From contig OZ245049.1 of NCBI GenBank assembly GCA_965224465.1, positions 3,750,001-3,782,000 on the forward strand: a stretch of DNA of 32,000 nucleotides. The letters run 5' to 3'. The notes under the pieces were generated by a model. It did no database searches. It was given only the letters and a program-made list of their open reading frames with translations, and had not been told where the DNA came from. This document shows, piece by piece, positions 2,423-26,361 of the stretch. This stretch comes from Flavobacteriaceae bacterium. GTDB lineage: Bacteria > Bacteroidota > Bacteroidia > Flavobacteriales > Flavobacteriaceae. The stretch's first letter is position 1; every line of letters starts with the position of its first letter. The position numbers and the translations under genes are program-made.

Positions 2423-5392
2423 ATGGCAGAGGTTGTAGAAGAAAAAAAAACAGGACAATATAATGGTATTCTGTATGAGTGTAGTTTTACGGCAGAGGGT
2501 AAAGGAGTTACCTGTGTAGAGCAGCCTGTACTTAAAGTGGTTAAACCAGGTGTGCGAATAAATTTGATGCGTATAGCCTTGATAAATAGAACACCTAAGT
2601 TTACGCCTTTAATGCTAGAGGGGGTTGGGAAAGATGAATTTATGCCATTGGAGACCCCAAAAGGTGCTCCAGACGTAGAAGGGTTAAGCAACTATGTATA
2701 TGCAAGTACAAGCTTAAGACCCGGGTTTTTATATGTAATCAACGAGAGTGATTCAGATGGTTGGAGTGAATGGGAAGTAGGATTAGGAGGGTGGCTTAAA
2801 GAGATAGATAAATCGCAAGCAGAAAGTGATTTTAGAAAAGTCACATCAGATGCTGTAGTAATTGATCAGTATGTTGCAGAACCTACAGATGTTTTGTGGT
2901 TTGCGTACTCAGAAATACAATGGAGTGCAGATTATTTTAAAAGCATGCGTGATGATAGTTCTAAACGGGGCACTCGTATGCAAAAATATGACTTAATTAA
3001 ACATGTTAATAATGAGTCTCAAAACGATGCAGCATCTTGGGATATAATGAAAAATAATTTTCTGATTATCCCCGAAAATAAATTGGATTATAATGTTACA
3101 CAACAAAATTATACAATAGCTTCTTTTGATGAAACCAATAATACCGAAAGTTATAAACTGGATGCTATCCTATGTCTACATGATCCAGTAGGGATATTTA
3201 TAGAACATTTTTGTTATCTAAAATACCTATGGAATAAGATGGATTATTTAATGATTTCATTAAAAATAGGGAAAGAAGTTAGCGATATAGAAAGAGCTTT
3301 GGCAAAAGGTCAAGATCCAAGATTATTACAAAACGCTGAAAAACTTGAGCAAATAGATGCGCTTTACAATATTGCTGTTAATATACGTGCTGTTGCTTTT
3401 TCAGATCAAGAAAGTATAGATAAAATAGGTGATAATATTGATGCAAAAAGGTTAAACAAAGTATTAGCTACTGAAGAACGATTGCTAATTAAAAATAAAA
3501 TTGTCAAAAGTAAAATGGTTTTTGCAAAATTTATTGAAAGTGATTATTTTAAAAGAATAAAGCAAGATTATTTTGAGAACACTCCTAATGTAATAATGGA
3601 AGGAAAATTTTTATTTGCTAGTTTAATGGTTGATTTGTGGAAACCTGCAAATTTTAAAGACAGTTTTTTAGAAACCGTTGACGAGAGTGCACAATGGAAT
3701 GCCAGTACAAAAGAAGGAAAAGAGTTTATTATAAAAGTATTAAATCGTAAAAATTTCTTAGGAAAATTATTTAATACCGTTACACTCTTAGAGGATGTTG
3801 AGGAAAATTCAAACAACCTAAAACTTATAAAGATTATCGATGCACTGTTTGATGTGGCAAAAGGGGTTGCTGAAGAGGGTGATGAAGTACTGAAACTGTG
3901 GGTTGCTATGATGAATAGTACTCGCTTAAAAATAAACGGGAAGGTGGTAGTAGCAACTTTTGAGCTTACTACAATGGCTAAAGAGTATAGGAAATCTTAT
4001 GTTGGGCGCTCCGACTTTGTGAAAAACACATTAAACATCAATAAAAAATCCTATAAAAAATTCAAAAAAGCAACAAATGAACTGAGTGAAGGGTTTATGG
4101 AACTTATGGAGTCCAAACAAATTAAGCTTACTGCTAGTTTTGAAAAAGCGATAAAAAGTGAAACTTTAAATGGCATGAAGAATTTTCAAGCTAGCTACTT
4201 CTGGAGGAAATTAATGCGTAGTCTTAGTTTTGTTAATCTTGCCTTGGCAACAGCTGCTCTTAGAAAGTCAGATAGTAAATTTCAAAAACTTTTAAATATA
4301 AGTAAATTTTTAACCGCTATTTCCGAGGTAAATGTACAGGTACGTAATGTAAAAGCAATGCGACTGGTTGGAGATGAATTAGAAGTTTTTAAAATAGCTA
4401 CAGAGAAGTTGTCAATTAGAGTGATGTATGCGGGAGCTGTGATTGATATAGCCGAAGCAGGGCTTAATTTTTGGGAACGCGATTACGATGCGGCTTCCGC
4501 GTATGCAGGAGCGGCGGTCACAGGATTATTGGCAGCTTTAATATTAGGGGGTACAATAAATATATGGAATCCAATAGGATGGGGATGTCTTATATTAGGA
4601 GCTTTGCTTGGTTTTTATGCAGCTTATTTGGAAGACTCCCCTTTAGAGCGTTTTGCTAAAAACGGAGTATTTGGTAGCATTCCTTCTAAGTATATATTTT
4701 GGAAAACTGTTGATTTTGATGAGAATAATGGTTATTTAAAGTATATAGAGGAGCATGTAAAAGAAACAACTAGAGTTGCTTTACATAAAACAGGCTTTGG
4801 TGATTGGGCAGACTATCCTACGCAATACAAGGATTTTATGAATATTTTAATAGGAGGTAGAATACATATTAAAATAAATAAAAATGATGAAGTAGAGATA
4901 GGCGAAACAATGAAAGCGGGTTCGTATGCCGATAAATCGAAAGTCATATTAAAAACATTTCTAATAAAAAAAATACAAGTGACTGCCTTTTTTGGTAGCT
5001 ATTTAACAGATAAAGAAGCATTAGAATATCATGTTTTTTACTTGCCTCAAGGTTTTGGAAAGGAAGCAGAAGAGGTAACTACTTTTTTATGCCAAAGTAA
5101 TATTACCATAAGTACTCTCAAAAGCCAAGTGCCAAAAGCACATTGGTCTATTGATTTAGAGTATCTTTATGATGTTAATAAATATTCTCAGATTATTATT
5201 ATGTGTCGTTTAAATATAAATAACAATCAATTTTTTCCAATTCCAAAAAAAACAATTCCACGTTATATTGCGGTAACAATACCTGTGATTCGAAATGATT
5301 CGCAGTCAGGATTTGTTTATAGAGATGGTCTCAATGATCGTGTTTATGTTGGGACACAACAAGAATTACTAAATAAAAAAATATGGAAATAG
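2423..5392 (+). CDS. Large T6SS effector, VasX-like N-region plus glycine-rich TM helices (putative membrane-disrupting toxin)
   Basis: 989 aa, starting 5 nt after the PAAR stop. N-region motifs are shared with 19189..22542: KPGVRINLMRIAL, LRPGFLYVINE, WSEWEV, LWFAYSEIQWS, LCLHDPVG. These resemble the VasX N-terminal / BTH_I2691-type effector pattern (PvRYal, lRxGwlYv, vqWs, lxDPxG). Hydrophobic Gly-rich helices lie at about 4430-4635 (AYAGAAVTGLLAALILGG...GWGCLILGALLGFYAAYL). Confidence 0.6.
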   Translation: MAEVVEEKKTGQYNGILYECSFTAEGKGVTCVEQPVLKVVKPGVRINLMRIALINRTPKFTPLMLEGVGKDEFMPLETPKGAPDVEGLSNYVYASTSLRPGFLYVINESDSDGWSEWEVGLGGWLKEIDKSQAESDFRKVTSDAVVIDQYVAEPTDVLWFAYSEIQWSADYFKSMRDDSSKRGTRMQKYDLIKHVNNESQNDAASWDIMKNNFLIIPENKLDYNVTQQNYTIASFDETNNTESYKLDAILCLHDPVGIFIEHFCYLKYLWNKMDYLMISLKIGKEVSDIERALAKGQDPRLLQNAEKLEQIDALYNIAVNIRAVAFSDQESIDKIGDNIDAKRLNKVLATEERLLIKNKIVKSKMVFAKFIESDYFKRIKQDYFENTPNVIMEGKFLFASLMVDLWKPANFKDSFLETVDESAQWNASTKEGKEFIIKVLNRKNFLGKLFNTVTLLEDVEENSNNLKLIKIIDALFDVAKGVAEEGDEVLKLWVAMMNSTRLKINGKVVVATFELTTMAKEYRKSYVGRSDFVKNTLNINKKSYKKFKKATNELSEGFMELMESKQIKLTASFEKAIKSETLNGMKNFQASYFWRKLMRSLSFVNLALATAALRKSDSKFQKLLNISKFLTAISEVNVQVRNVKAMRLVGDELEVFKIATEKLSIRVMYAGAVIDIAEAGLNFWERDYDAASAYAGAAVTGLLAALILGGTINIWNPIGWGCLILGALLGFYAAYLEDSPLERFAKNGVFGSIPSKYIFWKTVDFDENNGYLKYIEEHVKETTRVALHKTGFGDWADYPTQYKDFMNILIGGRIHIKINKNDEVEIGETMKAGSYADKSKVILKTFLIKKIQVTAFFGSYLTDKEALEYHVFYLPQGFGKEAEEVTTFLCQSNITISTLKSQVPKAHWSIDLEYLYDVNKYSQIIIMCRLNINNNQFFPIPKKTIPRYIAVTIPVIRNDSQSGFVYRDGLNDRVYVGTQQELLNKKIWK

Positions 5393-6252
5393 ATTTAGAA
5401 TACCAACATGCACAAAAATTTAAGAGTAAATACTTACGGCCTTTGCCTTTTGTAATTCGTACAGATTCACTTCAAATTGATATTAAAACCAAACAGAATA
5501 AAAAATTATACCCTATTTTTAATAACAATTGTATCAAACGATTTATTCCTTCAAATAAGAATATTTCAAAAATGGATATTTATATGCATATAGGTATTTG
5601 TTCCTTTTTTTGGATACTAATACCTATAATTGAACTTATAGATAATGGAGGTATTGATATGATCGTTTTTGCTTTTATAATTCCTTTAGGATTGCCTTTT
5701 CCTTTTATGGCTTATAGGTCTTTTAAACAATATAACATAGCTCCTGAACAAACTTTTGTTACTTTTGATCGGCTTAATAGCTTATTAACAATGCCTACAT
5801 CAGATGAACAAAGTTATTTTACCATACCTTTTTCACATTTAATCGCGGGAGAGGCTGTAACAGGAACCAAACATACTTATGGAGGTAAGTTTTTAGCTTT
5901 TATAAATGATACCAAACCTGTAATGTTCCGGCCATGGAGACCAGACGATTATATATCTTTAAATTATGCAGCTACTACCCCAAAAGAGATATGGTCATAT
6001 TACGTTTGGTATATGGATAAAAACCGTCCCTTACCTGAGTGTGAAGCTTTTGATGAGTTTAGAGAAAAAGATTTTGAGCGTCGTAAATTAGCAGGGTTTC
6101 CGCCACCGTTATTTAAGAGTAGGGTTCCAACCCCAGAGGCAAGCCTGGAACAACAATTACTACGTGAAACTTTTTGGAAAGACGAAGATTATATGGCTAC
6201 AAAAAACGAAGCTTTTCACAGTATATTTTTTAAAAGACCAAAAGAGAAATAG
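5383..6252 (+). CDS. Putative 2-TM membrane immunity protein (WYMDKNRPLP family)
   Basis: The ATG overlaps the effector stop (ATGGAAATAG). Two hydrophobic helices (GICSFFWILIPII, MIVFAFIIPLGLPFPFMAY). The C-terminal motif YVWYMDKNRPLPECEAFDEFREKDFERRKLAGFPPPLF is shared with 11926.., 13585.. and 22536... Confidence 0.6.
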   Translation: MEIDLEYQHAQKFKSKYLRPLPFVIRTDSLQIDIKTKQNKKLYPIFNNNCIKRFIPSNKNISKMDIYMHIGICSFFWILIPIIELIDNGGIDMIVFAFIIPLGLPFPFMAYRSFKQYNIAPEQTFVTFDRLNSLLTMPTSDEQSYFTIPFSHLIAGEAVTGTKHTYGGKFLAFINDTKPVMFRPWRPDDYISLNYAATTPKEIWSYYVWYMDKNRPLPECEAFDEFREKDFERRKLAGFPPPLFKSRVPTPEASLEQQLLRETFWKDEDYMATKNEAFHSIFFKRPKEK

Positions 6253-6308: not shown

Positions 6309-6403
6309 AAGCAATGCATTCGCGCGGATTTTAAATCCGCGCCAGTAACTGATTGTCTGCTAAGAATGTTTCGCGGAAAGGTTTACGGAAAAAGGTGATT
6401 TAT
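6309..6403 (+). repeat. Conserved 95-nt junction element, copy 1 (21-nt palindrome 6322-6342, stop-TTG start, first 17 codons)
   Basis: aagcaatgcattcGCGCGGATTTtAAATCCGCGCcagtaacTGAtTGtctgct...aaaaaggtgatttat recurs at 14382-14476 and 23339-23433. It always follows a membrane-immunity gene. Confidence 0.85.
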
Positions 6404-6910
6404 GCATCATTAGAAAATACAGATGATGTTTTTGAGTTTTTAAGTAATGAAAAAAAAGATGGAAAAGAAGAACAATATTTTACAAATATTAAAGCAGGAA
6501 CAAAATTAAAAACAAGCCTATCTTACAAAGTAGACATTAAAGCAAATACACCCATAAAAGTACTTAAAATTAAAGGAGATTATGCACAAATAAAAGTAAC
6601 ATCTATTACTGCAACCTTAGTTAGAGATACCGATATTAATGATAACGTAAAACCATTTAATAGCAATAAACTTTATACTATCAAAAATCTTACTACGGTT
6701 AATAAAGCATTTAATGGTCTTGCAACTAAAGATGCCACATTCAATACAAAACAAGTAAAAGCACCAAGAAATTGGAGAACAAATTTAAACAGAACTGTTA
6801 CCTTTTACCCAAATGGCTATGGTAAAGTGATTTGGATAGAAAAAACATCTATTTCCAAAATAGCAGAAAAAATAAAAAAAATTAGATATAATTACCTCAA
6901 TTATTCCTGA
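6353..6910 (+). CDS. N-terminal ORF piece of the frameshifted PG effector
   Basis: 185 aa, near-identical to residues 1-176 of 23383..26361. The TTG start directly follows an in-frame TGA. The tail IRYNYLNYS is out-of-frame read-through. Confidence 0.6.
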
Positions 6911-7415
6911 CTATTTTTTAACAGATAAACAAAAATACGAAACAGTTGAAAGAGAAGCCAAAACAGGAGAAAAAACTACATTATATGTAGATGTATGTAA
7001 GGCATATATCGAAGTCCCTTTTAGAACCGATGTAGAAGAAGTAACTGTAGAAAAAGAAAAAGTAGTTGACTTACGTAAATTTAAAAAAGCAAAAGACGAT
7101 AAAAAAGACCTTTGGTATAAAGTAGTATTAGATGATACAACTAGTAGCCAATGTGTAGCAGTAAAAGGCTGGGTAAAAGAAAAGGATCTTGACAAATTTA
7201 GCGCTTACGATTGGCAAAAATTTGGTTTTAAAGATCTAGACGCAGGTAATGAATACATATACTCTGTAAAAGACTTACGTGAGGCAACAGATAGTGCCGA
7301 TTTTGTAACCGAAATTTGGGATAAAACAATAGATACAGATGGCAATAAAGTATTAGATATACTAGAGCTTATTAGAGCGTTTAGTAAACCAGAAATAGCA
7401 CAAAAACTATCTCGT

Positions 7416-9302
7416 TTGGTATGTAAGCACAAAAATGAATGGTCTTATACTATGGACGAAATAAAACCAGAAGTAAAAGAACGCTGTGATTTTGGTATAC
7501 AATTAGAAGAAGTTACAGCCGAAAAACAAAAACTAGAAACCCAAAGGGATGATAGTTTAGCCAAAATGGAAGCCAAAATAGAAAATTTAATGTGGTGGGA
7601 TGAGGCAAGTAAAAAAACCTACACAGCACCCGTAAAAGAAGAAGATAAAACAAAAACGAGTAGCACCAAAAGACCTTCTATGTTGCCAGAAGGTACAGTG
7701 GTAGAAGAAATACCACAAAAAGTTGTTGTACCTTTAGACAATAAAACAACAGCAGCTAAACCAGATGCTAAACCAACGGAAGATAGTATACCAACGACAA
7801 GTACAACCGCTGCTCCAGCACCAGAAACTAAAGTAGAAGAAAAAGAAGTGCCGCCAAAACGTATGTTTCCTAAAAGCAATATAGTACATCACTTTCATCC
7901 AATTGCTTGGGTGGAGCAGATGAAACGAATGTATGGAGATTGTAAAGTTTTGAAAAAAGGAGATAAAAACGAATTAGTTAGAGAAATAAATATCCGTTTA
8001 GCAGGTTTTGGAGGAAATGTACCAACTGACGAGTTTACACAACGTACCGTAGATATGGTTAAACAATTTCAAAAAGACTATATGAAAGTGGAGCAAACGG
8101 GTGTGGTATGTGGTAAAATGTTTAAAGCTATTGATGAGTTTGATGAAAAATATATTATTCCTTTTAATAAAATTAAATGTAGATGTGGTGGATGTACTGG
8201 TTTTGGCAAAGGGAAATTTACTTCTCAAAAACAAAAGGGAAATATTAAAGAACTGTACAGGAAATATGAGTACCCAGGTATTCATAAAACATTGTTATGG
8301 ACATTAAAATCAACTATGTTTTATCTCGCAAACAATGATAAATCACATAAATTAAAATTCGGTAAAATTTCCTCTGGATACAGATGTCATATAGATAACA
8401 CACAACATAATAGAAGTTCAACTAATCATATGGGGAAAGCTTTAGATGTGCATTTTTATAAAAATAATGCTACTTCATCTTCTGAAAAAAACTGCGATAT
8501 TGTAAGAGATAAAATTCTAATAAATAGATCTGGAGCTCAATTAAGATGGGGAAACAGTAATAAAATCTCTTTAGAACCTAGTGAGAAAGACAGAATTGGT
8601 AGTGAATTTATTGCAACAACATGGGTTCATTATGATGTTAGAGAGTTTGATTTAGAATTTTTAGATGACAAGTTCTTTATAAAAAAACTAGATGATAGTC
8701 TCGAAAATAAAATTCAAAATTTAGCAAAAAAAGAAGGGTACGATACTGAATGTAATTGTAATTCTAATGGAGATAATAATTCAACCCAAGATGAAAGAAT
8801 TGATCCTGAAATTTTAAAAACAAGTGAAAAAGGAATCCAATTTATTAAAGATTGGGAAAGTTTCAAGAGTGAAGCATATAATGACTCTAAAGATTATTGT
8901 ACAATAGGTTATGGACACTTAATTGCCTATGAAAAATGCGAAAACATTACTTTATCTGAAGATTTTAAAAATGGAATTACTAAAGAAAAAGCAACCGAAT
9001 TGTTTAAAGAACGTCTTGTCGAATTTGAAAAATCTATTCAAAAAGACATAACGGTTAACCTTTATCAATATGAATTTGATGCTTTAGTAAGTTTAGTATT
9101 CAATACAGGTAAAGCTTTTTTAAGGACAAAAGGAGCTGGTGGTGGAGATACCAAAATTAAAAAGAATATTAATGCTAAAAAATATACAGAAGGAGCTGAC
9201 GAATTTGGAGATGTTACTAATGGAGGAACTTCCGGTTTAGTTAAAAGAAGAAATGCAGAAATTAATATGTTTAAAAATGATATTTATGATTCAATACATT
9301 AA
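7416..9302 (+). CDS. C-terminal ORF piece of the frameshifted PG effector; could be translated from ATG 7452 like the orphan modules
   Basis: Coiled-coil, PT-rich linker and [12 protein letters not shown], followed by three domains. PG_binding_1-like: [22 protein letters not shown]...VKQFQKDY. M15-like zinc peptidase: CRCGGC...SGYRCHIDN...[13 protein letters not shown]...WVHYDV. GH24 phage lysozyme: [26 protein letters not shown]...[12 protein letters not shown]...[13 protein letters not shown]. Confidence 0.8.
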
Positions 9303-10254
9303 ATTATTATCTATTTTTATTTGTTTAACGTTAATGTTTACAGTCTCTTGCAAAGAGAATAAAAAACAAATTGACAAAATAAATAAACAAGATGTTGTAA
9401 TAGCCAAGCAAGAAAACACCACATATAATTGGCGTTTTTTGAATGCCTTTTCTTTAGATAATTCAACCAATGAAATATTAAACCTAAAATTTAAAATAAT
9501 AAAAGATAGTATTTTTATAAAGAATATTGGAAAAGAAGCACTTTACAAAGGTGAAATTAATTCTAAAAAGTACTTTAATCGTATCTATGACTATGAATAT
9601 TTAAAAAGGTTTCTAAGTGATAAATTTAACATTAAAATTAAAAATACTTTAATTTATTTAAGAAATAAAAATGCGCACAAAAAAGAATCAATTCTCAAAA
9701 AATATTTTGATGATGCGTTTATAATTGATAATTTATTATTTATAGTTAATGATGAAGATTTTGTTGTTTTTGAAAAAATGAATGTTAAATCAATTAATAA
9801 AGACACAATTACAAGTAACTATAAAATAAACAATTTACCGATAAGCTACAACTATGCAAATAATTTTATGCAAATACAATTACCAATTGCATGGGTAAGT
9901 TTAAAACCAAATGTATCTTTTGAAGATACCTTTATAGCATTATTACCAAAAGTAAAAGAATATCAACCAGTAATATTAACAGGAATGTATTCTGCTGGAA
10001 ATAGTGAAGAGTTTTTAGTAATCTTAAATAGTGAAAACAAAGAAACATCTAGAATTAAACTATATTACAACGATGCACCAGATGGAAATGTAGAAAATTA
10101 TAGTTATTCAACATATCAAATAGAAAAAAACTATACAATTAAGATTACAGTATATAAAGTAAAAGAAGATTTAGTAAATAACAAAATAACAGAAAAAAAA
10201 TCTTCCGATATATATTATACTATTAATAATAAAGGAATGATTGTGAAAAAATAA
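9253..10254 (+). CDS. Lipoprotein, putative periplasmic immunity protein for the preceding PG hydrolase
   Basis: Signal peptide plus lipobox ([18 protein letters not shown]|KENKK). The real start is probably ATG 9277 or 9286, just before or overlapping the effector stop at 9300-9302. It sits immediately downstream of the toxin. Confidence 0.7.
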
Positions 10255-10409: not shown

Positions 10410-10469
10410 TTTTAAAATAGTTCGATTTTCTCTTCATAAGGCTGCTTTAAAAATCGAACTATTTTAAAA
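10410..10469. repeat. Perfect 20-bp inverted repeat with 20-nt spacer
   Basis: ttttaaaatagttcgatttt (10410-10429) is the exact reverse complement of aaaatcgaactattttaaaa (10450-10469). It lies in the non-coding end downstream of the IS256-like transposase fragment. Confidence 0.8.
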
Positions 10470-10488: not shown

Positions 10489-10659
10489 TCACGAACTGCT
10501 TCCGTTTTTATGTAAATCCAACGTTATTTGATCTTCAAATTTAATATATAATTGTTGAATTGTCAAGTACCAATTATGTAAAGGGTTTGTCCATTTTTTT
10601 TCGATATTTTTTGTTGCTAAGTAAACAATCTTCAATAGTGCCATATCACTGGTAAAAGG
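10489..10659 (-). mobile_element. IS256-family transposase C-terminal fragment (56 codons plus stop)
   Basis: The minus-strand translation is PFTSDMALLKIVYLATKNIEKKWTNPLHNWYLTIQQLYIKFEDQITLDLHKNGSSS*. This matches the conserved C-terminal block of IS256/Mutator-type transposases (..LLKLxYLAxxNIxKKWTxPIxNW..F..FEDR). The fragment is truncated at 10659 by the IS66-type end. Confidence 0.6.
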
Positions 10660-10857
10660 TATCCGTCCGACGAAGTACGTATAGGAATTAATAATACATA
10701 AAAAAACCTCGATTTTATTGATCGAGGTTTAAATTTTGTGGAAATAGCTCATTTAATTTTAGCGCATTGTAATCAGGAATTATATCCAGTACTTTTTTCA
10801 GCCATTTATAGGGGTTTACTTGGTGTTTTTTACAAGTCCCAAAAAAGGAATAGAACA
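10659..10857 (-). mobile_element. Truncated IS66-family element end, copy 1 (terminal ~199 bp only)
   Basis: About 95% identical to 10858-11055. It begins with the same terminus GTATCCGTCCGACGAAG and contains the last codons and stop hairpin of the transposase. Confidence 0.65.
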
Positions 10858-11434
10858 GTATCCGTCCGACGAAGCACGTATAGGAATTAAAAATACATAA
10901 AAAAACCTCGATTTATTGATCGAGGTTTAAATTTTGTGGAAATAGCTCACTTAATTTTTGAGCATTGTAATCAGGGATTATATCCAGTATTTTTTTCATC
11001 CATTTATAGGGGTTTACTTGGTGTTTTTTACAAGTCCCAAAAAAGGAATAGAACATCGCTGCATTTTTTGCAGCATCATGGCTACCTGCAAATAAATAAT
11101 TTTTACGTCCAATAGCTAATGTTCTGATAGATCCTTCTACTAGGTTATTATCTAGTTCTAAAGTACCGTCATACAGGTAGGCTTTTAAGTAGTCCCATCG
11201 TTTTAATGTATAAGTAATTGCTTTTCCTAGTGGACTTTTCGGTAAGCTTCCTTGGGTATTATGGATCAACCATTTTATAAATGTATCCATTATTGGTTGT
11301 GCTTTATCTAGGCGATAAGCATGCCGTTGCTCAGGAGTAAATTCCTGGTTTTTACAATGTCGTTCTATCCAAATTGGAGGTAATGATAGAGCTGGTGCTA
11401 CCTTTACTTCTGCCAATATTACAAGAGTAACCAT
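10858..11434 (-). mobile_element. Truncated IS66-family element end, copy 2, with transposase C-terminal ORF 10913..11434
   Basis: The 173-aa ORF carries the IS66 transposase C-terminal signature LELDNNLVEGSIRTLAIGRKNYLFAGSHDAAKNAAMFYSFFGTCKKHQVNPYKWM. The N-terminal two-thirds, including the DDE core, are missing. Its terminus abuts an internal point of copy 1. Confidence 0.8.
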
Positions 11435-11925: not shown

Positions 11926-12621
11926 ATGGCAAAAATTAAAAAGCGTTTTGGTAAATGGGGAGGTTATTTGCCACATTGTATTGATGGACGACCTACAATA
12001 GATATAAAAAAAGAAGAAATGGATGGAGAATATTATATTAAAGCTAATGATGAGTTTTTTATAATGAATAATGATTTATTTGGTAATATATATCTATATA
12101 TAGGGTTAGCCCTTTATTTCTTTATGTTATTAACAATAGCAATAAGACTTTCTGCAGATAAAGATGTTGGTTTTATTTTTTTATTTTTTTTATTTTCTTT
12201 TGGAACATTATCTATCATATATAATTATACAGCTCCAGTAAAAAAGATTATTTTAGATAGACTCAATGGGATCGTTACTTTTCCCAACTTTTTATGGGGC
12301 AAACCTATTTGCATGCCTTTTAAAGATATGTTGGTAGCATGGTCAGTAAAAAATTCAGGAATCAACCCTTCAGGACCTTCGCTTTCTGCTTTTCATCCCA
12401 ACGGTTTTTTTAGCACCGATATTATGGGGGCAGATGTGTTGGAAGATTGGTATTTTATAGTATGGTATATGGATAAAAACCGTCCTTTACCTCCGGGTAC
12501 TGCTTTTGATGAATATCGTGAGAAAGATTATCTGCGAAGAAAATCTGAAGGCTTTCCAGAAGGGTTATATCCTTGTAGTATTCATATTCCAGAATACAAG
12601 CCTTCAAAAAAAAGAAAGTAA
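11926..12621 (+). CDS. Putative 2-TM membrane immunity protein (WYMDKNRPLP family), orphaned
   Basis: Starts 4 nt after the effector remnant. Two TM helices. Shared motifs: RLNGIVTFPNFLWGKPICMPF and IVWYMDKNRPLPPGTAFDEYREKDYLRRKSEGFPEGLYPC. Confidence 0.6.
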   Translation: MAKIKKRFGKWGGYLPHCIDGRPTIDIKKEEMDGEYYIKANDEFFIMNNDLFGNIYLYIGLALYFFMLLTIAIRLSADKDVGFIFLFFLFSFGTLSIIYNYTAPVKKIILDRLNGIVTFPNFLWGKPICMPFKDMLVAWSVKNSGINPSGPSLSAFHPNGFFSTDIMGADVLEDWYFIVWYMDKNRPLPPGTAFDEYREKDYLRRKSEGFPEGLYPCSIHIPEYKPSKKRK

Positions 12622-12685
12622 AAAACAAAGAATTGTAACTCTTATTAATTAGAAAATAATATGATAACTATTAAGAATTGTTAGT

Positions 12686-14381: not shown

Positions 14382-14476
14382 AAGCAATGCATTCGCGCGG
14401 ATTTAAAATCCGCGCCAGTAACTGAGTGTCTGCTAGGAATGTTTTGCGGAAAGGTTTACGGAAAAAGGTGATTTAT
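14382..14476 (+). repeat. Conserved 95-nt junction element, copy 2 (palindrome 14395-14415)
   Basis: Same element as 6309-6403 and 23339-23433. Here it is followed by different coding sequence. Confidence 0.85.
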
Positions 14477-14725
14477 ACATTAAGAGAAAATAGTGAAGAA
14501 GAAGATTTAATACCAAAAGTTTTAGACTACTACCTAACGGACCTTAATCGAAACAAAATAGATAAAACAAAAATAGGTGAGAAAGTTTTTTTGAATATTA
14601 AAACCAAAAAATTAATTGGCGAATTGCTATCTATTTCTTTGAATGATAAAAAGGCTGATTTTAAATATAAAAATGAAAGACGACCAAATGATACTATTAA
14701 CCTGTCTCGAATTTTTTGGAAATAA
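14426..14725 (+). CDS. Small ORF starting with the PG-effector leader ([17 protein letters not shown]), then divergent; possibly a decayed effector N-terminus
   Basis: The GTG start follows an in-frame TGA, as in the other junction copies. The first 17 codons are conserved, with only weak similarity afterwards (RENSEEED vs LENTDDVF). It overlaps the next ORF in another frame. Confidence 0.35.
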   Translation: MSARNVLRKGLRKKVIYTLRENSEEEDLIPKVLDYYLTDLNRNKIDKTKIGEKVFLNIKTKKLIGELLSISLNDKKADFKYKNERRPNDTINLSRIFWK

Positions 14726-18463: not shown

Positions 18464-19177
18464 ATGCCAGGACCAGCAGCAACAATATCACACATGCACA
18501 CATGCCCTATGTATAGTGGAACAAGCCCACATACTGGCGGCCCCATTATAGGCCCGGGAGTGCCAACAGTTTTAATAGGAGGAAAACCTGCCGCAGTAAT
18601 GGGGGATCAATGTACCTGTTCGGGACCACCCGATGTAATTGTAGAAGGTGTTTCTACCGTATTAATTGGTGGGAGACCCGCAGCTACTATGGGATCAAAA
18701 ACAGGTCATGGAGGCGAAGTAAGCATTGGAAATACTACCGTACTTATTGGTACAAGATGTAGTGCTCCTACCGCAATAATGCCAGTAAGCAAAATACCTT
18801 TTCCTAAAATATCTTTTAAAGATCGTATACTAACTTCTTTGTCGGGGAATTCATTGGCAGAAGCAGAAGCGAATCAAGCTGCTTTGAGAGAAGAAGAGGA
18901 AGGTGAGCCTGAAATATATGGTGTACAGTGGATTATAGGAGAACAAACAGTAAGAGAATCTCATGTGTTTTCTGAAGTAACTGTAAGGGCTAGGGTAAGA
19001 AATATTAATGATGGTGAAAAAATTACTTTTTCTATTAAAAAACCTCTTAGCACAACGGATAATAATGGAGTTAGTACTACTTCCGAAGAAGATATTATTG
19101 AGTTATCAGGTACAGTACAAGACAAAATAGTAGAGGTAACTTGGGAAATTGAAAAATCACAGGAAGAATCTAAATAA
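18464..19177 (+). CDS. PAAR-domain spike-tip protein with variable C-terminal extension
   Basis: PAAR motifs as in 1725..2417. Identity with that copy ends at 18910. The C-terminal ~88 aa are divergent. Confidence 0.9.
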   Translation: MPGPAATISHMHTCPMYSGTSPHTGGPIIGPGVPTVLIGGKPAAVMGDQCTCSGPPDVIVEGVSTVLIGGRPAATMGSKTGHGGEVSIGNTTVLIGTRCSAPTAIMPVSKIPFPKISFKDRILTSLSGNSLAEAEANQAALREEEEGEPEIYGVQWIIGEQTVRESHVFSEVTVRARVRNINDGEKITFSIKKPLSTTDNNGVSTTSEEDIIELSGTVQDKIVEVTWEIEKSQEESK

Positions 19178-19188
19178 AATAGCAGATA

Positions 19189-22100
19189 ATGGTTACGGAA
19201 GAAGTAATAAAATACCAAGAGGAAGGAGCAAAATTAGTTGATAGTAAATACACCGTAGTTGTATCAGGTTCAGGCGTGGTGAATGAAGAAAGACCAGTAT
19301 TTAAAGCATTATTACCAGGTATTAGATTGCATTTTCTTAGATATGGTTTGTTTGATAGAAACAAGGATAACGTAAGTTCGATTCGTATTAAAGATGATAC
19401 GGACGAAAAATACACAGCATCAGATACTGATGTGTCCAATGGCGACCTACAAACCACCAAAGACTTTAGAGTAATGGCTACGCTACTTAAGAAAGGATAT
19501 GTATATATTATTAATGCGGAAAATAAAAATGACTATCATGAATTAAAAGTTGGTGAATTTGGAATGCTTTACCCTATAATTTGGAATACTAAAAATTTAG
19601 AAAGTGATGGTAGAACCCCTAAAGACTTTAGAGAGATTAATGGTGAAAAATCACATTACAAACTCATTTCTAAAACAAAAAAAGAAGGTGGTAAAAAATA
19701 TTGGATAGGCTACAGCCCTGTGCAATGGTCGTACGAATTACATAAAAAAATGCTCGCTGCATCTGATGAAGATAAAAAGCAGAAGCACATGATTTTAGTA
19801 GAATGTAAAGGTATAAAAAAAGGAGAGGAAGAAGCCAATGAATATATTTTACCTTACAATAAAATAAATATAGCCTTTTATGAAGGCGAAGACACAGATA
19901 GTTTAGTAAGAAAAACGTTAAATCAAATATTTGCCACTGAAAAAAAAGAAGAAAAACGTGGTAATAATGAGCTTCTTGAAGATATGTTTATTACTCTGCA
20001 TGATCCTGTAGGCTGCCTTCATGATGTTGGAGGTGTTTTAAGTGAAAAAACTGTAGAGTTTAGAGCTTTGGTAGAAGCTATTCAATCTGGAGAAACAGAG
20101 ATTGAAGCCAGAAGAAGATATGCCAAAACTCCTCCTGAATTTGCTCCTAACCCTAGTGATAATTACAAAAACATGTTCTCACTGGCTCTGGCTAGCTATA
20201 AAATGGTGTATAGTAGTAAAGAAAATACTCAAAAATTTGATGGTGCTGAGGTAGGGTATAATTTAACAAAACGTAATCAAACTAATTTTCCATATCAACC
20301 AAATTCTAGCGCTTCGTATGAGTTTACTATTAATTCTTTCTCAAAAAGTGATTATGGAGTGATAATTAAAAAAAAAACTAATAATTACGTAGCTAATGAG
20401 CATATTGGTAGTGGGTTGCACCGTTTAAAAGTAGAGGGAATATTAGGTGTGCACCCACGAAGAAAAAAGAGAGCCCAGTTAATTAAATATCGTGACATAG
20501 TAGGTGAATTTATACAATCAGACTATTTAAAGAAGGGATTGGCCTTTTATTCTGAAAATTGTTCTGCTTACAAAATTTTTGGTATTGAAGAATTGTATAA
20601 ATATATTTTACTTTTATATACAAATCCGTATGGTATTGACCGTCATTTACTTTTAAACAAAAAAAATGATCTTGAAAAAGACGTTTATTATAGCAGTGAC
20701 CAGTGGATTGATTGGATAAATAAACAAAAAAAATTAAAAACTCCAAACAATCCCAATGACCCTTTAGACGTCTTATTGGTTCACGAAATTTCTATTGGTC
20801 AAAAATTATTAAATAAAAAGGTAGAATTATCTAATAAATTAGCCGCTGTTTTTTCTGCGAAATTAACACTGCACTCATTAAGCGAGGATTTTTTTAAATC
20901 AAAAAAAATTACAAAGGCTATCACAGGAAAAACAAACTACCAAAAAATTATTAATGAAGGCTATACTGAAATGATAGACCAGCTAAATAAAATTACGGTA
21001 ATTACAAAAAAAGGAGGTATACCTGAAAAAGTGTTTAGTTTTGGCAATACTCACGCAATAGAAATAAATGCAAAAGTATTAGGTGTAGATTTTGATCCTA
21101 ATGTAGATGTTATTATAAGAGGTCCTGATGGGAAAAATATAAAAGAATTTACTACGGATTTAATAAAACACAATAAATTAAATGGAAATAAAGCCACTGT
21201 TGCTGGTGGTGCACATGTGTTAGAAGTTGGTGACAATGTAGAAAACATAAGCAAATATGAATATGTAAGAAATAAAATTAATAAAAACGGAGCCAAACGC
21301 TTTAATCAAAAAGCATATAATGCTTTAAATTCTCGTGGATTTACAGTTTTTTTAGCGGGTTTAGAAGTGATTAATTTTTACTATGCAACTTTGGGGCTGT
21401 ATGAATCAATACGAAAGGAGGAGTCAATACTAGTTAGAGCTAAAGAAGTTATTAACACGGCCGGAATTGGAGCCGAACTAGTAGAAGCTTCCTTCCGAGT
21501 ACAAAAAGCACATTATATTGCAATAGGTGAGGAGCTTGCAGAAAGTACAGCCAAAGGTCTATCAAATAAAATTGCAATAGCAGGTGCTATTGGTGGTATT
21601 ATTACTGCTGGTATGTGTATTACAGAAGCTGTTATAGCCTTTAATAAACGTGATGTTGATGCCAGTATTGCTTGGGGATTGGCAGGTGTTGCTTTTACAG
21701 TAAGTACTGCGGCAGGTATTTGGGGAGGAACTGTTTTTTTATTATCAGGGCCTGTAGGTTGGATTGCCTTAGGGATTGGTTTAATAGGAGTGGTTTTAGC
21801 AAATGTTTTTATAGACACAGACTTGGAATTCTATTTTAAACACTTTTTATTATCCGATCATAAAAAATTACCTATTGGTAATAACAGTCCTATGGCATAC
21901 AACCGTCTTGTCTATAAAAGTATTGAGACTTTAGTAGAGAGTGAGGATGACGACATTAAAAATAGCCTAATGTATCCTGAGGATGCTATTGCTAGTTTAC
22001 ACGATCTTACGGTATGTACCAGCATTAATTACTATGTAGAAAACATGAAAATGAAATTTGCAGGCAGACGTGGTAGAAGTACGGGGTATTATGTAAGTAG

Positions 22101-22542
22101 TTTTGGTATTACTATGAATTTTAATCATTTTTTATACGATGTAAATCAATTAGAAGCAAAAGGTATGATAGTGCGTCATACCTGGGTTAATAGTATTGGA
22201 AGTAATGCAGAAGAATTTAATTTAATATTAAAAGATGCCAAAATAATAAGCATGAAAAATGGACAACAACAACTTTTAGTAATTGTAGCAATACCTTACG
22301 AAAAAAGAAAATTAATAAAAGACGATAAAGATTTAGAAATGGTACTAGCCATACGTGTAAGAATTAATAAAGAGAAAAACCATTACTTCCCTTACAGACT
22401 ACTAGACAAACCTGAACGCTATATTGGTGCTAAATTTAAGTTATATAAAAACATATACACTAATTCAGGGGAAAATAACACAGATAATCAAAATTTAGTT
22501 TTTGATACCTTAGCGAACTTAAAACTTGATAAAACATGGTAG
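19189..22542 (+). CDS. Large T6SS effector, VasX-like N-region plus glycine-zipper TM helices (putative membrane-disrupting toxin)
   Basis: 1117 aa. Motifs: LPGIRLHFLRYGL, LKKGYVYIINAEN, YHELKV, YWIGYSPVQWS, ITLHDPVG. TM/Gly-rich region at about 21340-21815 (AIAGAIGGIITAGMCI..., AGVAFTVSTAAGIWGGTVFLLSGPVGWIALGIGLIGVVLANVFI). Confidence 0.6.
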   Translation: MVTEEVIKYQEEGAKLVDSKYTVVVSGSGVVNEERPVFKALLPGIRLHFLRYGLFDRNKDNVSSIRIKDDTDEKYTASDTDVSNGDLQTTKDFRVMATLLKKGYVYIINAENKNDYHELKVGEFGMLYPIIWNTKNLESDGRTPKDFREINGEKSHYKLISKTKKEGGKKYWIGYSPVQWSYELHKKMLAASDEDKKQKHMILVECKGIKKGEEEANEYILPYNKINIAFYEGEDTDSLVRKTLNQIFATEKKEEKRGNNELLEDMFITLHDPVGCLHDVGGVLSEKTVEFRALVEAIQSGETEIEARRRYAKTPPEFAPNPSDNYKNMFSLALASYKMVYSSKENTQKFDGAEVGYNLTKRNQTNFPYQPNSSASYEFTINSFSKSDYGVIIKKKTNNYVANEHIGSGLHRLKVEGILGVHPRRKKRAQLIKYRDIVGEFIQSDYLKKGLAFYSENCSAYKIFGIEELYKYILLLYTNPYGIDRHLLLNKKNDLEKDVYYSSDQWIDWINKQKKLKTPNNPNDPLDVLLVHEISIGQKLLNKKVELSNKLAAVFSAKLTLHSLSEDFFKSKKITKAITGKTNYQKIINEGYTEMIDQLNKITVITKKGGIPEKVFSFGNTHAIEINAKVLGVDFDPNVDVIIRGPDGKNIKEFTTDLIKHNKLNGNKATVAGGAHVLEVGDNVENISKYEYVRNKINKNGAKRFNQKAYNALNSRGFTVFLAGLEVINFYYATLGLYESIRKEESILVRAKEVINTAGIGAELVEASFRVQKAHYIAIGEELAESTAKGLSNKIAIAGAIGGIITAGMCITEAVIAFNKRDVDASIAWGLAGVAFTVSTAAGIWGGTVFLLSGPVGWIALGIGLIGVVLANVFIDTDLEFYFKHFLLSDHKKLPIGNNSPMAYNRLVYKSIETLVESEDDDIKNSLMYPEDAIASLHDLTVCTSINYYVENMKMKFAGRRGRSTGYYVSSFGITMNFNHFLYDVNQLEAKGMIVRHTWVNSIGSNAEEFNLILKDAKIISMKNGQQQLLVIVAIPYEKRKLIKDDKDLEMVLAIRVRINKEKNHYFPYRLLDKPERYIGAKFKLYKNIYTNSGENNTDNQNLVFDTLANLKLDKTW

Positions 22543-23324
22543 ATGCGACTTTTAATTACAAACGCCCTATAACCCATACCCAATACAAACATGGAGATAA
22601 AGAAACCAAAAAAGGAGGATTTAGCAGAATGCTGACTATGCGTATAACAGATGACATGCATGTTATGAAAAAAAGTGATGTAGGTACTAAAGGGGGCTTT
22701 CCTTTTGCTACAGATGTTTTTTTAAAATGCCCTGTTGTTCCTAAGATAATGCCTTTATGGTTGGGTAGCCTATTTTTATTTTTATTTTTATTTTTTATTT
22801 ATCTATATCTTACACCAAGTGACAAAGACAATGGCGATTATATATTATTTTATTTAATAACTTTTCTTTCTTTTCTAGGATTTTTGTTTTTTGCAACCTA
22901 TTATTTTACGATGCCAACAAAAGAGCTTATTTTTAATAGAGCGGACGGTTTGGTTACTTTTCCTGGGTTTATGTGGTGTAAAAACATAACGATGCCTATA
23001 CATAAGATAATATTTTCTATGTCATCACCTAGTATTCAGGGAGGAGGTGCTTATATGTTGCAAATTGTACGACCAGACAGGACGTATTCCTTGTATTTAT
23101 GTACAAGGGGCTATAGTTGTTATGAAGATTTATCATCTTATTTATGGTATATGGATAAGAATAGACCATTACCTACGGGGGAAGGTTTTGATCCGTGTCG
23201 TTTACAAGATTTTGAACGTAGAAAATCTGAGGGTTTCCCTAAGCCATTATTTCCTTGTAGTTTTGAAACTCCAGAAGCTACGCTTGAACAACAGGCAGAA
23301 CGTGAGCGTATTGGCGGTTGGTAA
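22536..23324 (+). CDS. Putative 2-TM membrane immunity protein (WYMDKNRPLP family)
   Basis: The ATG overlaps the effector stop (ATGGTAG). 262 aa with two TM helices and the conserved C-terminal motif. Confidence 0.65.
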   Translation: MVDATFNYKRPITHTQYKHGDKETKKGGFSRMLTMRITDDMHVMKKSDVGTKGGFPFATDVFLKCPVVPKIMPLWLGSLFLFLFLFFIYLYLTPSDKDNGDYILFYLITFLSFLGFLFFATYYFTMPTKELIFNRADGLVTFPGFMWCKNITMPIHKIIFSMSSPSIQGGGAYMLQIVRPDRTYSLYLCTRGYSCYEDLSSYLWYMDKNRPLPTGEGFDPCRLQDFERRKSEGFPKPLFPCSFETPEATLEQQAERERIGGW

Positions 23325-23338: not shown

Positions 23339-23433
23339 AAGCAATGCATTCGCGCGGATTTAAAATCCGCGCCAGTAACTGAGTGTCTGCTAGGAATGTT
23401 TCGCGGAAAGGTTTACGGAAAAAGGTGATTTAT
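23339..23433 (+). repeat. Conserved 95-nt junction element, copy 3 (palindrome 23352-23372)
   Basis: Same element as 6309-6403 and 14382-14476. Confidence 0.85.
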
Positions 23434-26361
23434 GTATCATTAGAAAATACAGATGATGTTTTTGAGTTTTTAAGTAATGAAAAAAAAGATGGAAAAGAAG
23501 AACAATATTTTACAAATATTATAGCAGGTACAAAATTAAAAACAAGCCTATCTTACAAAGTAGATATTAAAGCAAATACACCCATAAAAGTACTTAAAAT
23601 TAAAGGAGATTACGCACAAATAAAAGTAACATCTATTACTGCAACCTTAGTTAGAGATACCGATATTAATGATAACGTAAAACCATTTAATAGCAATAAA
23701 CTTTATACTATCAAAAATCTTACTACGGTTAATAAAGCATTTAATGGTCTTGCAACTAAAGATGCCACATTCAATACAAAACAAGTAAAAGCACCAAGAA
23801 ATTGGAGAACAAATTTAAACAGAACTGTTACCTTTTACCCAAATGGCTATGGTAAAGTGATTTGGATAGAAAAAACATCTATTTCCAAAATAGCAGAAAA
23901 AATAAAAAAAGAAGCAGGTATAATTACCTCAATTATTCCTGACTATTTTTTAACAGAAGAACAAAAATACGAAACAGTTGAAAGAGAAGCCAAAACAGGA
24001 GAAAAAACTACATTATATGTAGATGTATGTAAGGCATATATCGAAGTCCCTTTTAGAACCGATGTAGAAGAAGTAACTGTAGAAAAAGAAAAAGTAGTTG
24101 ACTTACGTAAATTTAAAAAAGCAAAAGACGATAAAAAAGACCTTTGGTATAAAGTAGTATTAGATGATACAACTAGTAGCCAATGTGTAGCAGTAAAAGG
24201 CTGGGTAAAAGAAAAGGATCTTGACAAATTTAGCGCTTACGATTGGCAAAAATTTGGTTTTAAAGATCTAGACGCAGGTAATGAATACATATACTCTGTA
24301 AAAGACTTATGTAAGGCAACAGATAGTACCGATTTTGTAACCGAAATTTGGGATAAAACAATAGATACAGATGGCAATAAAGTATTAGATATACTAGAGC
24401 TTATTAGAGCCTTTAGTAAACCAGAAATAGCACAAAAACTATCTCGTTTGGTATGTAAGCACAAAAATGAATGGTCTTATACTATGGACGAAATAAAACC
24501 AGAAGTAAAAGAACTCTATGATTTTGGTATACAATTAGAAGAAGTTACAGCCGAAAAACAAAAACTAGAAACCGAAAGGGATGATAGTTTAGCCAAAATG
24601 GAAACCAAAATAGAAAATTTAATGTGGTGGGATGAGGCAAGTAAAAAAACCTACACAGCACCCGTAAAAGAAGAAGATAAAACAAAAACGAGTAGCACCA
24701 AAAGACCTTCTATGTTGCCAGAAGGTACAGTGGTAGAAGAAATACCACAAAAAGATGTTGTACCTTTAGACAATAAAACAACAGCAGTTAAACCAGATGC
24801 TAAACCAACGAAAGATAGTATACCAACGACAAGTACAACCGCTGCTCCAACACCAGAAACTAAAGTAGAAGAAAAAGAAGTGCCACCAGAACGTATGTTT
24901 CCAAGTACAAATATAGTACATCACTTTCATCCTATTGCTTGGGTGGAGCAGATGAGGTTGATATTTGAAAAACAGACGGGAGAGTGCTATTGTAATAGAG
25001 ATTTTACTGTGGAAGAAGTTACAAGAATTATCAAAAGACTAAGAAAAAATGAAAACCTTAGTGGCAATTCTATATTAAGTCATGACAACTGTAAGATAAC
25101 CAATAAATCATTTGATAAACTTACAGAAGAACTAAATAAAACCATCGCTAAATACAAAATATCACAATGTATACAAAAAATACACTTTATAACTCAACTT
25201 TATCATGAATCTGCCAGATTTACTACTGGTCTAGAATTTGATAATGGAAATTATTACAATCCTAATGGAGGACATCCTGAAGCAAAAAACAATGGTAATA
25301 TTCAAAGTGGAGATGGGCCACGGTATAAGGGTCGAGGATTTATGCAATTGACATGGAGAAATACACAAATAAAATACTTAAAATATGCTTCTAAAAATAC
25401 AGAAGGGAAATTAAAAGGGAAAACAGATTCTGAATTGGAGTTACGAAGTAATAACTATCAAAAATATATTTCTGATGATTTAGGATATGCTATGGATTCT
25501 GCAGGTTGGTTTTGGAGTAATTATAAAAAAATAGAGTTTAGTAAAAAAGAAAATAAAAATAGATATGCACATATAATAAACAAACCTTTAAATGAGGTCG
25601 CTCTAAATGAAGATAAATATTTGAGTTTAATTTCCAAATTTATCAATGGAGGTAAAAAAGGGATTAAGAAGAGAGCAAATTATTATCAAATATTAAAAAG
25701 CGTCTTTAGATATGAGGTAGATTGTATTAATAATATTGCCTCATCAAAAGAAGAAGTAAATCAATCCTTACCACCTTGGTTGAAAGTTGCTTTTGAAGAA
25801 TACAATACTCATTTAGGATATATAGAAGAAGAGAAAACTTTAAAAAATCGCATAGAAAAAGTATATTTTGGCTCAACCCAAAATAAAAGTTTGAAATACA
25901 CGGATCCATGGTGTGCTGCTTTTATAAATTATTGTTATTTAAAAGGAGGTCTATCATATAAAAATTTAACAGGGATTCAAGTTAGGGCTTTTGAATGGGG
26001 ACCGTTTAATAATAAATTTTTAATTACCAAAAGAAAAAATATTGGAGGTTGGAAAGAAGGAGAAGATTATGGTAAACCTTTTCTTGGAGCATTAGCAATA
26101 TACTCTGGAAGTCATGTAGGTTTTGTTGTTGGTAAAAATACTAGAGGCAAAATAGTTCTGTTAGGAGGTAACCAAAATGGAGTTATTGGTAATACTAATG
26201 TTGGTGGAGATGAAAGTGTTTGTTTCTCATCATACCCAGCAAATAAAATACTTTTTTACATGAAGCCTAAGGGTTTTATTGTTCCTCCTGAAATAGATGA
26301 AGAAAATTTACCTATTATAAATATTAGTAACCCAACAGAAACATTTGCCTCACTTAGATAA
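23383..26361 (+). CDS. Modular PG-hydrolase T6SS effector (GH19-like muramidase + TIGR02594/NlpC-P60-like peptidase C-terminus), intact
   Basis: 992 aa. The GTG start directly follows an in-frame TGA, and the first in-frame ATG is codon 368. SH3b-like segments ([10 protein letters not shown]...[12 protein letters not shown]), coiled-coil, PT-rich linker and [14 protein letters not shown]19 motifs: HFITQLYHESARF...GPRYKGRGFMQLTWRNTQ. TIGR02594-like motifs: PPWLKVAFEEY...DPWCAAFINYC...SHVGFVVGKN...LLGGNQNG. Confidence 0.85.
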   Translation: MSARNVSRKGLRKKVIYVSLENTDDVFEFLSNEKKDGKEEQYFTNIIAGTKLKTSLSYKVDIKANTPIKVLKIKGDYAQIKVTSITATLVRDTDINDNVKPFNSNKLYTIKNLTTVNKAFNGLATKDATFNTKQVKAPRNWRTNLNRTVTFYPNGYGKVIWIEKTSISKIAEKIKKEAGIITSIIPDYFLTEEQKYETVEREAKTGEKTTLYVDVCKAYIEVPFRTDVEEVTVEKEKVVDLRKFKKAKDDKKDLWYKVVLDDTTSSQCVAVKGWVKEKDLDKFSAYDWQKFGFKDLDAGNEYIYSVKDLCKATDSTDFVTEIWDKTIDTDGNKVLDILELIRAFSKPEIAQKLSRLVCKHKNEWSYTMDEIKPEVKELYDFGIQLEEVTAEKQKLETERDDSLAKMETKIENLMWWDEASKKTYTAPVKEEDKTKTSSTKRPSMLPEGTVVEEIPQKDVVPLDNKTTAVKPDAKPTKDSIPTTSTTAAPTPETKVEEKEVPPERMFPSTNIVHHFHPIAWVEQMRLIFEKQTGECYCNRDFTVEEVTRIIKRLRKNENLSGNSILSHDNCKITNKSFDKLTEELNKTIAKYKISQCIQKIHFITQLYHESARFTTGLEFDNGNYYNPNGGHPEAKNNGNIQSGDGPRYKGRGFMQLTWRNTQIKYLKYASKNTEGKLKGKTDSELELRSNNYQKYISDDLGYAMDSAGWFWSNYKKIEFSKKENKNRYAHIINKPLNEVALNEDKYLSLISKFINGGKKGIKKRANYYQILKSVFRYEVDCINNIASSKEEVNQSLPPWLKVAFEEYNTHLGYIEEEKTLKNRIEKVYFGSTQNKSLKYTDPWCAAFINYCYLKGGLSYKNLTGIQVRAFEWGPFNNKFLITKRKNIGGWKEGEDYGKPFLGALAIYSGSHVGFVVGKNTRGKIVLLGGNQNGVIGNTNVGGDESVCFSSYPANKILFYMKPKGFIVPPEIDEENLPIINISNPTETFASLR

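Follow-up and report, generated by a model that had tools for sequence, protein, structure and literature searches.

The window analysed here is a 32,000-nt stretch of a Flavobacteriaceae genome (32% GC) and represents a Bacteroidota-type T6SS effector region. It contains two genes each for Hcp/TssD, VgrG and PAAR proteins, the last with C-terminal extensions, together with two full VasX_N-type effectors, one 3' fragment of such an effector, and four two-TM genes that are paralogous to one another and occupy the immunity position. The genes follow the order VgrG (PF04717/PF05954), PAAR (PF05488), VasX_N effector (PF20249), two-TM gene and then a short repeated element, with Hcp/TssD (PF17642) close to this series (Table 1). 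The immunity-type genes encode two hydrophobic segments, and their homologues are named 'Transmembrane protein' in two database sources.

An initial annotation of the sequence had described the same 95 nt at 6309-6403, 14382-14476 and 23339-23433, always right after a membrane-immunity gene. Both observations were confirmed: the copies are 95–99% identical and start 56, 14 and 14 nt past the stop codons of the immunity genes that precede copies 1, 2 and 3, respectively, with an element present behind three of the four immunity-type genes in the window. Alignment using blastn extended the three-way similarity to 6419/14492/23449, with pairwise identities of 93–99% over these longer copies. The near-identical three-way core has its right end at ...GGTGATTTAT, and over the last 18-19 nt of the element copy 2 matches copies 1 and 3 at only 14/19 positions.

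Within the 95-nt core only four positions vary across the three copies: the central base of a palindrome, the first base of a TTG/GTG codon, AAG/AGG, and TCG/TTG. The palindrome, GCGCGGATTT(T/A)AAATCCGCGC, is exact in all three copies as previously described, and no occurrence of its 21 nt (GCGCGGATTTnAAATCCGCGC) was expected from 100 shuffles of the window, even at three mismatches. The reported start-capable codon abutting an in-frame TGA was likewise found (TTG at 6353 in copy 1, GTG at 14426 and 23383 in copies 2 and 3), as were the 17 shared codons, with the peptide MSA(K/R)NV(S/L)..., and the lack of an early ATG in the effector ORF. The first in-frame ATG of the 992-codon ORF behind copy 3 is codon 368, and its only other start-capable in-frame codons are 15 (a second in-frame GTG), 159 and 356.

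Table 1 Features of the T6SS effector region and of the repeated element (window coordinates)
Feature	Position	Strand	Remarks
Element copy 1	6309..6419	+	core 6309-6401; less conserved tail 6402-6419 ends in TTAGAAAATA
Element copy 2	14382..14492	+	core 14382-14476
Element copy 3	23339..23449	+	core 23339-23431; homology to the L031 full-length effector from 23449
Palindrome, perfect 10+1+10 (copy 1)	6322..6342	.	central T
Palindrome (copies 2 and 3)	14395-14415, 23352-23372		central A
In-frame TGA then GTG, adjoining (copy 3)	23380..23385	+	
In-frame TGA-GTG (copy 2)	14423-14428		
In-frame TGA-TTG (copy 1)	6350-6355		
Decapitated peptidoglycan-hydrolase effector	23383..26361	+	992-codon ORF, weak CHAP match
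Copy-1 effector	6353-6910, past a frameshift on to 9302		phage-lysozyme toxin domain
Decapitated Hcp-extension toxin fragment	14426..14725	+	99-codon ORF
Small ORF overlapping the 99-codon ORF	14673-14930		likely immunity gene, by position alone
Two-TM immunity-type gene before copy 3	22536..23324	+	
Immunity paralogue before copy 2	13585-14367		
Immunity paralogue before copy 1	5383-6252		~71% nt identity in 3' part
Fourth immunity paralogue	11926-12621		no element after
VasX_N-type effector of cassette	19189..22542	+	
VasX effector paralogue	2423-5392		C-terminal part differs
VasX 3' orphan fragment	12669-13591		
PAAR protein with C-terminal extension	18464..19177	+	paralogue 1725-2417

Truncated toxin genes behind the element

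As initially reported, the sequence following the element is near-identical for copies 1 and 3 and different for copy 2. In both contexts, what lies downstream is a toxin gene without its N-terminal part, of which a longer, intact version exists elsewhere. The 992-codon ORF behind copy 3 corresponds to codons 337 onward of P0002, a protein of 1264 aa that is the intact form and is encoded on the metagenomic contig L031; the first 22 codons of the ORF are supplied by the element. The N-terminal third of its product has a single relative cluster among 5.8 billion proteins. The common segments of L031 and the window share 96–99% nucleotide identity, dispersed repeats aside. In L031, the P0002 gene lies directly after a 153-aa PAAR gene, which provides an anchor of 375 nt at 96–97% identity to the window. 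Similarity to this PAAR stops at 18810/2071 in the window, which, judged from the alignment, is the left edge of an inserted cassette, and homology to the P0002 gene begins at 6419/23449, equivalent to L031 11009 and codon 337. Compared with L031, the window therefore carries 'PAAR extension-VasX-immunity-element' in place of 'PAAR tail + effector codons 1-336'.

Behind copy 2, residues 18-99 of the 99-codon ORF are 85% identical to the C-terminal extension of an Hcp/TssD-fusion paralogue, P0006; the homology is confined to this extension, the Hcp part being missing. With truncated homologues behind copies 1 and 3 on the one hand and copy 2 on the other, the element therefore precedes a beheaded toxin in both independent contexts. 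The place expected for immunity genes behind the truncated toxins is occupied by ORFs at 26345-27376, 9253-10254 and 14673-14930, which gave no family match and would, by position alone, be immunity genes.

In copy 1, an A-run (AAAAAATAAAAAAA) at ~6870-6885, the counterpart of which lies at 23900-23915, has lost 2 nt, and the ORF consequently ends at 6910. A full-length genomic paralogue (P0001) is annotated as ending at the same A-run, and the break may be either a homopolymer sequencing error or a slippage-prone tract. Elsewhere in the effector gene, a sub-block of ~235 nt (23626-23860 vs L031 11186-11477) could not be aligned by blastn, the rest of the gene being 97–98% identical; only distant similarity is retained at the protein level, and the sub-block therefore marks another mosaic joint inside the gene. 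The region behind the copies 1/3 hydrolase effector forms a classical orphan toxin/immunity array, in which a pre-toxin block of ~590 nt occurs four times (7340-7923, 24372-24967, 27421-28015 and 30203-30752), and a different toxin domain stands behind each copy (phage lysozyme, CHAP/GH19-like, peptidase M23, unknown), along with a lipoprotein-like ORF. The block begins near the first in-frame ATG of the 992-aa ORF.

Conservation and distribution of the element

The element coincides exactly with the overlap of two duplication blocks, one comprising 6309-7923 and 23339-24955 (97.8% identical) and the other 12669-14492 and 21618-23449 (95.1% identical). The initial claim that it is conserved whatever follows holds in that it precedes two different downstream ORFs, but its identity is no higher than that of the surrounding blocks (95–98%). 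What looks like a left 'edge' at 6309 is where divergence between the homologous immunity genes changes abruptly, homology continuing upstream at ~71%. Between copies 2 and 3 the core is slightly better conserved, with 1 difference in 95 nt, compared with about 5% in the upstream block (Poisson p about 0.05). The identity of 93–99% among the copies would reflect recent duplication or gene conversion rather than selection on the element. Both amino-acid differences within the 17 codons are non-synonymous, the remaining codon difference being that of the start codon, and pN/pS between the two decapitated effector copies is 0.84, not distinguishable from neutral (p = 0.51). On these comparisons, nothing points to selection on the 17 codons.

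No occurrence of the complete element was found outside the window in searches of representative genomes, metagenome, viral and plasmid sequences, and proteins. A blastn search of plasmids gave no match to the element, the exact 31-mer of its non-palindromic half had 0 occurrences in metagenome contigs and the 20/24-mers 0 in viral contigs, and an nhmmer profile of the same half reached a best E of 1.6 in 112 loci, 79 of them encoding immunity homologues. Absence from homologous loci in relatives, which the initial annotation had named as counting against its proposal, was observed: no element follows the immunity gene in these 79 metagenomic loci or in two MAG loci with VgrG-PAAR-VasX-immunity order (L113 and L114), where similarity to the window ends at the immunity stop codon. 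The element was also absent after 121 homologous immunity-gene ends in other genomes. As far as these searches extend, it is confined to one marine flavobacterial lineage.

The palindrome was also searched for by itself in other genomes, as the initial annotation had proposed. A scan of 185,579 representative genomes, the source genome not among them, revealed 30 loci, none with the flanks of the element; with its flanks unrelated, the palindrome alone is therefore not diagnostic. Many of the loci are intergenic hairpins near stop codons (often within 30 nt) or parts of local repeats, and some are extended by A/T tracts as a bidirectional terminator. The 21-nt palindrome was observed in clustered intergenic repeats of two Gillisia genomes and in a multi-copy repeat of one Chloroflexia MAG (8 loci on 5 contigs), possibly REP-like families with a common hairpin core (Gillisia and Chloroflexia palindromes: L008 5493-6110, L019 6403-7177, L009-L011, L013, L016, L018, L024 and L030). 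A weak extension of similarity to the Gillisia repeat was rejected, being driven by the pre-selected palindrome and aligning poorly beyond it. Like intergenic GC-rich hairpins and REP-like repeats of Flavobacteriia and other bacteria, the element carries the identical palindrome in intergenic DNA. Unlike them, it has no flank similarity; all three palindrome copies in the 32-kb window lie in the same context, within the element, and none is found in the 23.8 kb of L031. With its copies so few and bound to the element, the palindrome would therefore probably not form a dispersed repeat family in this lineage, judging from the window and L031.

Several other repeats were noted in the window. The 10-mer TTAGAAAATA occurs four times (6410, 12649, 16624 and 23440; 0.58 expected), in all cases on the + strand and at junctions. 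Two of the occurrences form the right edges of element copies 1 and 3, a third lies in the spacer that separates the orphan VasX fragment from the fourth immunity gene, and the remaining one abuts a VgrG ATG. A relationship of the element to the Hcp-VgrG intergenic region or to the spacer after the fourth immunity gene was rejected, since these regions share just this 10-mer and no similarity beyond it was found. Between the two Hcp genes (15381-16046), a 111-nt unit is repeated five times in tandem, with a 28-codon mini-ORF per unit. Copies of this unit are scattered over the opposite strand of L031, a close relative (2045-2088, 3485-3591, 5683-5760 and 9206-9261), and the unit therefore represents a lineage-specific dispersed repeat family. 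An IS66-family transposase remnant at 10656-11434 (ORF 10913-11434 on the - strand) is 99% identical to the IS66 copies of L031 and shows a 199-nt tandem duplication (10659-10857 / 10858-11055); a perfect inverted repeat with 20-nt arms lies just upstream, at 10410-10469.

Hairpin, start codon and leader peptide

Folding predicted a stem-loop with a 9-bp GC stem and a 3-nt loop (centroid -14.5 kcal/mol), located 27-69 nt past the immunity stop; the hairpins of the three window copies range from -14.8 to -16.4 kcal/mol. The fold of the whole element was no better than that of shuffled sequences (z = -0.11), the hairpin being its only significant structure. A terminator or attenuator, one of the roles initially considered, is a weak proposal: a GC hairpin follows the stop codon as in an intrinsic terminator, but the stem is followed by CAGTAACTGAGTG and not by a U-rich tract, and a terminator scan of 22500-24000 returned 0 terminator-like sites. 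With Rfam 15, the whole window gave 0 matches at gathering thresholds, the best sub-threshold match being STnc410 (20.3 bits, against a threshold of 50).

In its fullest form, this proposal would make the element a regulatory RNA, in which a terminator/attenuator uncouples the VasX-immunity operon from the downstream genes, the CGCGGA repeats provide an alternative pairing, and a mini-ORF senses translation. Consistent with this, a strong hairpin stands right behind the immunity gene in a region of otherwise 32% GC, its 3' arm UCCGCG could pair instead with the downstream CGCGGA at 23402-23407, and an in-frame ATG mini-ORF (ATG 23344; 6-12 codons) spans the hairpin in copies 2 and 3. In copy 1, however, the central T cuts the mini-ORF to 6 codons; covariation is impossible, since the stems are invariant; and a hairpin of <= -12 kcal/mol was found at just 1 of the 121 homologous gene ends, so that a general rule of hairpins after immunity genes was rejected. 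Given also the lack of a U-tract, of terminator-like sites and of an Rfam family, and the unexceptional fold of the whole element, we consider a regulatory RNA improbable. On the reading favoured below, the GC hairpin may act at the RNA level, as a 3' end or as a stabiliser or insulator of the VasX-immunity transcript.

Other candidate signals were examined and rejected. A tRNA or tmRNA fragment with the palindrome as an anticodon-like arm was not detected by ARAGORN, and a stem of 9-10 bp is not tRNA-like. The -7 motif of a Bacteroidota-type promoter (TTG...TAnnTTTG) is absent inside the element; one TAGTTTTG lies 81 nt upstream, within the immunity gene, in copies 2 and 3 only. A sigma-70-type match at 23412-23440 was at chance level.

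The TGA-GTG/TTG 'start' and the 17-22 codons that follow probably represent the downstream frame running back into the junction. The initial annotation had suggested that the 17 conserved residues are a short N-terminal loading tag, and the same basic peptide does stand at the head of two unrelated toxin bodies, as a T6SS loading or targeting signal might. Comparison with other genomes lent this no support, the peptide not recurring on other cargo: a profile of the 30 N-terminal residues, run against 1.84 billion representative proteins, gave 2 matches, namely P0005, the window's own 99-aa ORF, and a eukaryote-like LRR protein, which was rejected as spurious. Where the presumed tag sits, the intact homologues have either an Hcp domain or, next to PAAR, an N-terminal region of 336 aa. 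We regard a role as a loading tag as unlikely, with chances close to negligible. The element is not a conserved regulatory or targeting element.

Origin of the junction

At about an even chance, we favour reading the element as the segment that bounds a VasX-immunity cassette on its 3' side, where this cassette has been joined to two decapitated toxin modules; in kind, it would be an orphan-module junction of a mosaic T6SS island. The decapitation seen against L031 and the Hcp fusion leads to this reading of the element as a cassette boundary. It also supports the initial suggestion of a sequence marking cassette boundaries, the element being the block overlap where the VasX/immunity cassette meets two N-terminally truncated toxin genes. 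Sequence comparison establishes the anatomy of the element, shows that both downstream genes are decapitated and, as far as searched, places the element in one lineage only; the core would then be the boundary of incoming DNA.

In the proposed pathway, a cassette consisting of 'PAAR-extension / VasX-type effector / membrane immunity', with the element running ~95-110 nt from just past the immunity stop, would have been joined to two unrelated T6SS toxin genes, which would have lost their 5' parts in the process. Partner 1 would be the PAAR-linked peptidoglycan-hydrolase effector cut at codon 337, where copies 1 and 3 represent one common junction, later duplicated with the whole VgrG island; partner 2 (copy 2) would be the Hcp-toxin fusion, cut immediately ahead of its toxin extension. 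The join may have involved recombination anchored in conserved upstream sequence together with an illegitimate or microhomology join downstream, and/or segmental duplication, as in the 'displacement' that yields orphan toxin/immunity modules in polymorphic-toxin loci. The source genome contains at least 9 immunity paralogues and at least 3 copies of a 287-aa VasX 3' fragment, and joining events would therefore be frequent there. At 12622-12690, the fourth immunity paralogue is followed after ~48-70 nt by the VasX 3' fragment (homology from ~12669-12690), and this spacer contains neither the element nor a hairpin (best -6.2 kcal/mol); cassette joints in the island therefore do not all use the element.

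The arrangement resembles the orphan toxin/immunity modules found downstream of CDI (cdiA-CT/cdiI) and Rhs loci, most of which are without initiation signals (PMC3150448). In common with these, truncated toxin genes are stacked downstream of an intact effector-immunity pair in a secretion-system island, each with a small ORF in the place of a putative immunity gene, and the window's four ~590-nt pre-toxin blocks each precede a different toxin domain. In contrast to them, the genes behind the element have a start-capable codon that derives from the junction (TTG/GTG after TGA, with GTG at codon 15). They also lack homology to the VasX-type main effector upstream, and therefore could not be re-activated by simple homologous recombination with it. 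In the T6SS of Vibrio cholerae, effector genes are sequentially displaced by incoming effector-immunity modules, for which homology-facilitated illegitimate recombination has been proposed (PMC5361080). The two systems share a conserved upstream anchor (here the PAAR domain), a new module between this anchor and the remains of the resident effector, and a downstream shift of old modules that results in a mosaic island. They differ in that usually just orphan immunity genes survive in V. cholerae, whereas here most of the resident effector is retained (codon 337 to end), and in that the same 3' flank of about 95 nt of the incoming module here abuts two different residents. Like the attC sites of integron cassette arrays, the element is a short conserved palindromic sequence at the boundary of exchangeable cassettes. 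Unlike attC, its palindrome comprises 21 of ~100 nt, its ends (AAGCAATG... / ...GGTGATTTAT) are not inverted core sites in an R''-L''...L'-R' architecture, its boundaries do not lie at the palindrome, and no integrase ORF is present in the window.

Certain features count against a boundary scar. On the right-hand side, no more than about 18 nt separate the two independent joins, and both use the only frame of the element that has a start-capable codon and is open to the 3' end (about 1/9 by chance for the frame alone), a coincidence that would be rare among random illegitimate joins. In addition, the start varies only between TTG and GTG, the ORF of copy 3 is unbroken over 992 codons, and the core differs slightly less between copies 2 and 3 than the block upstream of it. 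A diverged remnant of the deleted 5' part of the effector was considered as a source of the element, because such an origin would remove the coincidence of the joins; the similarity proved to be at chance level, with 53/300 shuffles scoring at least equally at the DNA level and, for an anchored protein alignment with shuffle p = 0.03, 32/282 other windows of the same protein equalling it. The coinciding joins, the frame and the TTG/GTG alternation therefore keep two rivals alive. The element may have been kept as an adaptor providing a start and a short basic leader to decapitated toxin modules and to the immunity genes that follow; translation would begin at codon 1 (TTG/GTG) or codon 15 (GTG), and stand-alone proteins would be the products. 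In addition to the shared frame, the TTG/GTG variation preserving start capacity and the long intact ORF, this is favoured by the lack of any further start-capable in-frame codon before codon 159 and of any ATG before codon 368, by public annotation, which calls these starts (P0005 and P0136 are exact entries of the protein collection), and by a dN/dS of 0.33 (22 substitutions) between copy 3 and the relative's intact gene. Yet the pN/pS between the decapitated copies fits neutrality, copy 1 is frameshifted, the leader has no synonymous change that could reveal constraint and appears in no other protein family, and the context CCAGTAACTGA before TTG/GTG is unlike the A-rich context ahead of the window's VgrG and Hcp ATGs. 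Non-ATG starts are a minority in bacteria, which also counts against a start-supplying role. Orphan toxin fragments, moreover, are usually without initiation signals (PMC3150448). On balance we regard such an adaptor as unlikely, although it is the strongest of the rivals.

The second of these rivals is that the element is the end of a site-specific or mobile unit, integron- or IS200-like, with the palindrome as a recombinase core or subterminal hairpin and ...GGTGATTTAT as a defined end. The coincidence of the right edges of two independent contexts within 18 nt, the perfection of the 21-bp palindrome apart from its central base, which alone varies, and the same palindrome in the clustered repeats of Gillisia and a Chloroflexia MAG are consistent with this. 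Against it, the window contains no recombinase, integrase or Y1 transposase, its only transposase being the IS66 remnant, and there are no terminal inverted repeats, target duplications or attC-type R''/R' architecture. The similarity boundaries lie 13 nt to the left and about 60-77 nt to the right of the palindrome and not within it, the left one being a mere change in divergence between homologous immunity genes; L031 has no copies in 23.8 kb, and palindrome loci elsewhere have no common flanks. We give a mobile end only a slim chance. Similarly small is the chance that the core of ~95 nt serves as a portable adaptor whose right end is defined (...GGTGATTTAT) and which is joined in frame by an end-directed or site-specific mechanism, giving beheaded toxins a start. 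If true, a marine flavobacterium would possess an integron-like system for the capture and expression of T6SS toxin fragments, and many further immunity paralogues of the source genome would each carry a copy.

If the junction supplies a working start, the decapitated toxins would be expressed without their PAAR- or Hcp-linked loading domains, and how, or whether, they are delivered would then be in question. Most likely, such junctions are an ordinary by-product of the reshuffling of weapon loci in bacteria. If the element is indeed a boundary scar, it would be a clear, datable trace of the diversification of a Bacteroidota-type T6SS island, in which two unrelated effectors lost their heads to a VasX/immunity cassette while toxin/immunity modules remained in usable form. 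The displacement would be heterologous, with incoming and resident effectors unrelated, and the picture of orphan modules and displacement known from Proteobacteria would extend to marine Flavobacteriia.
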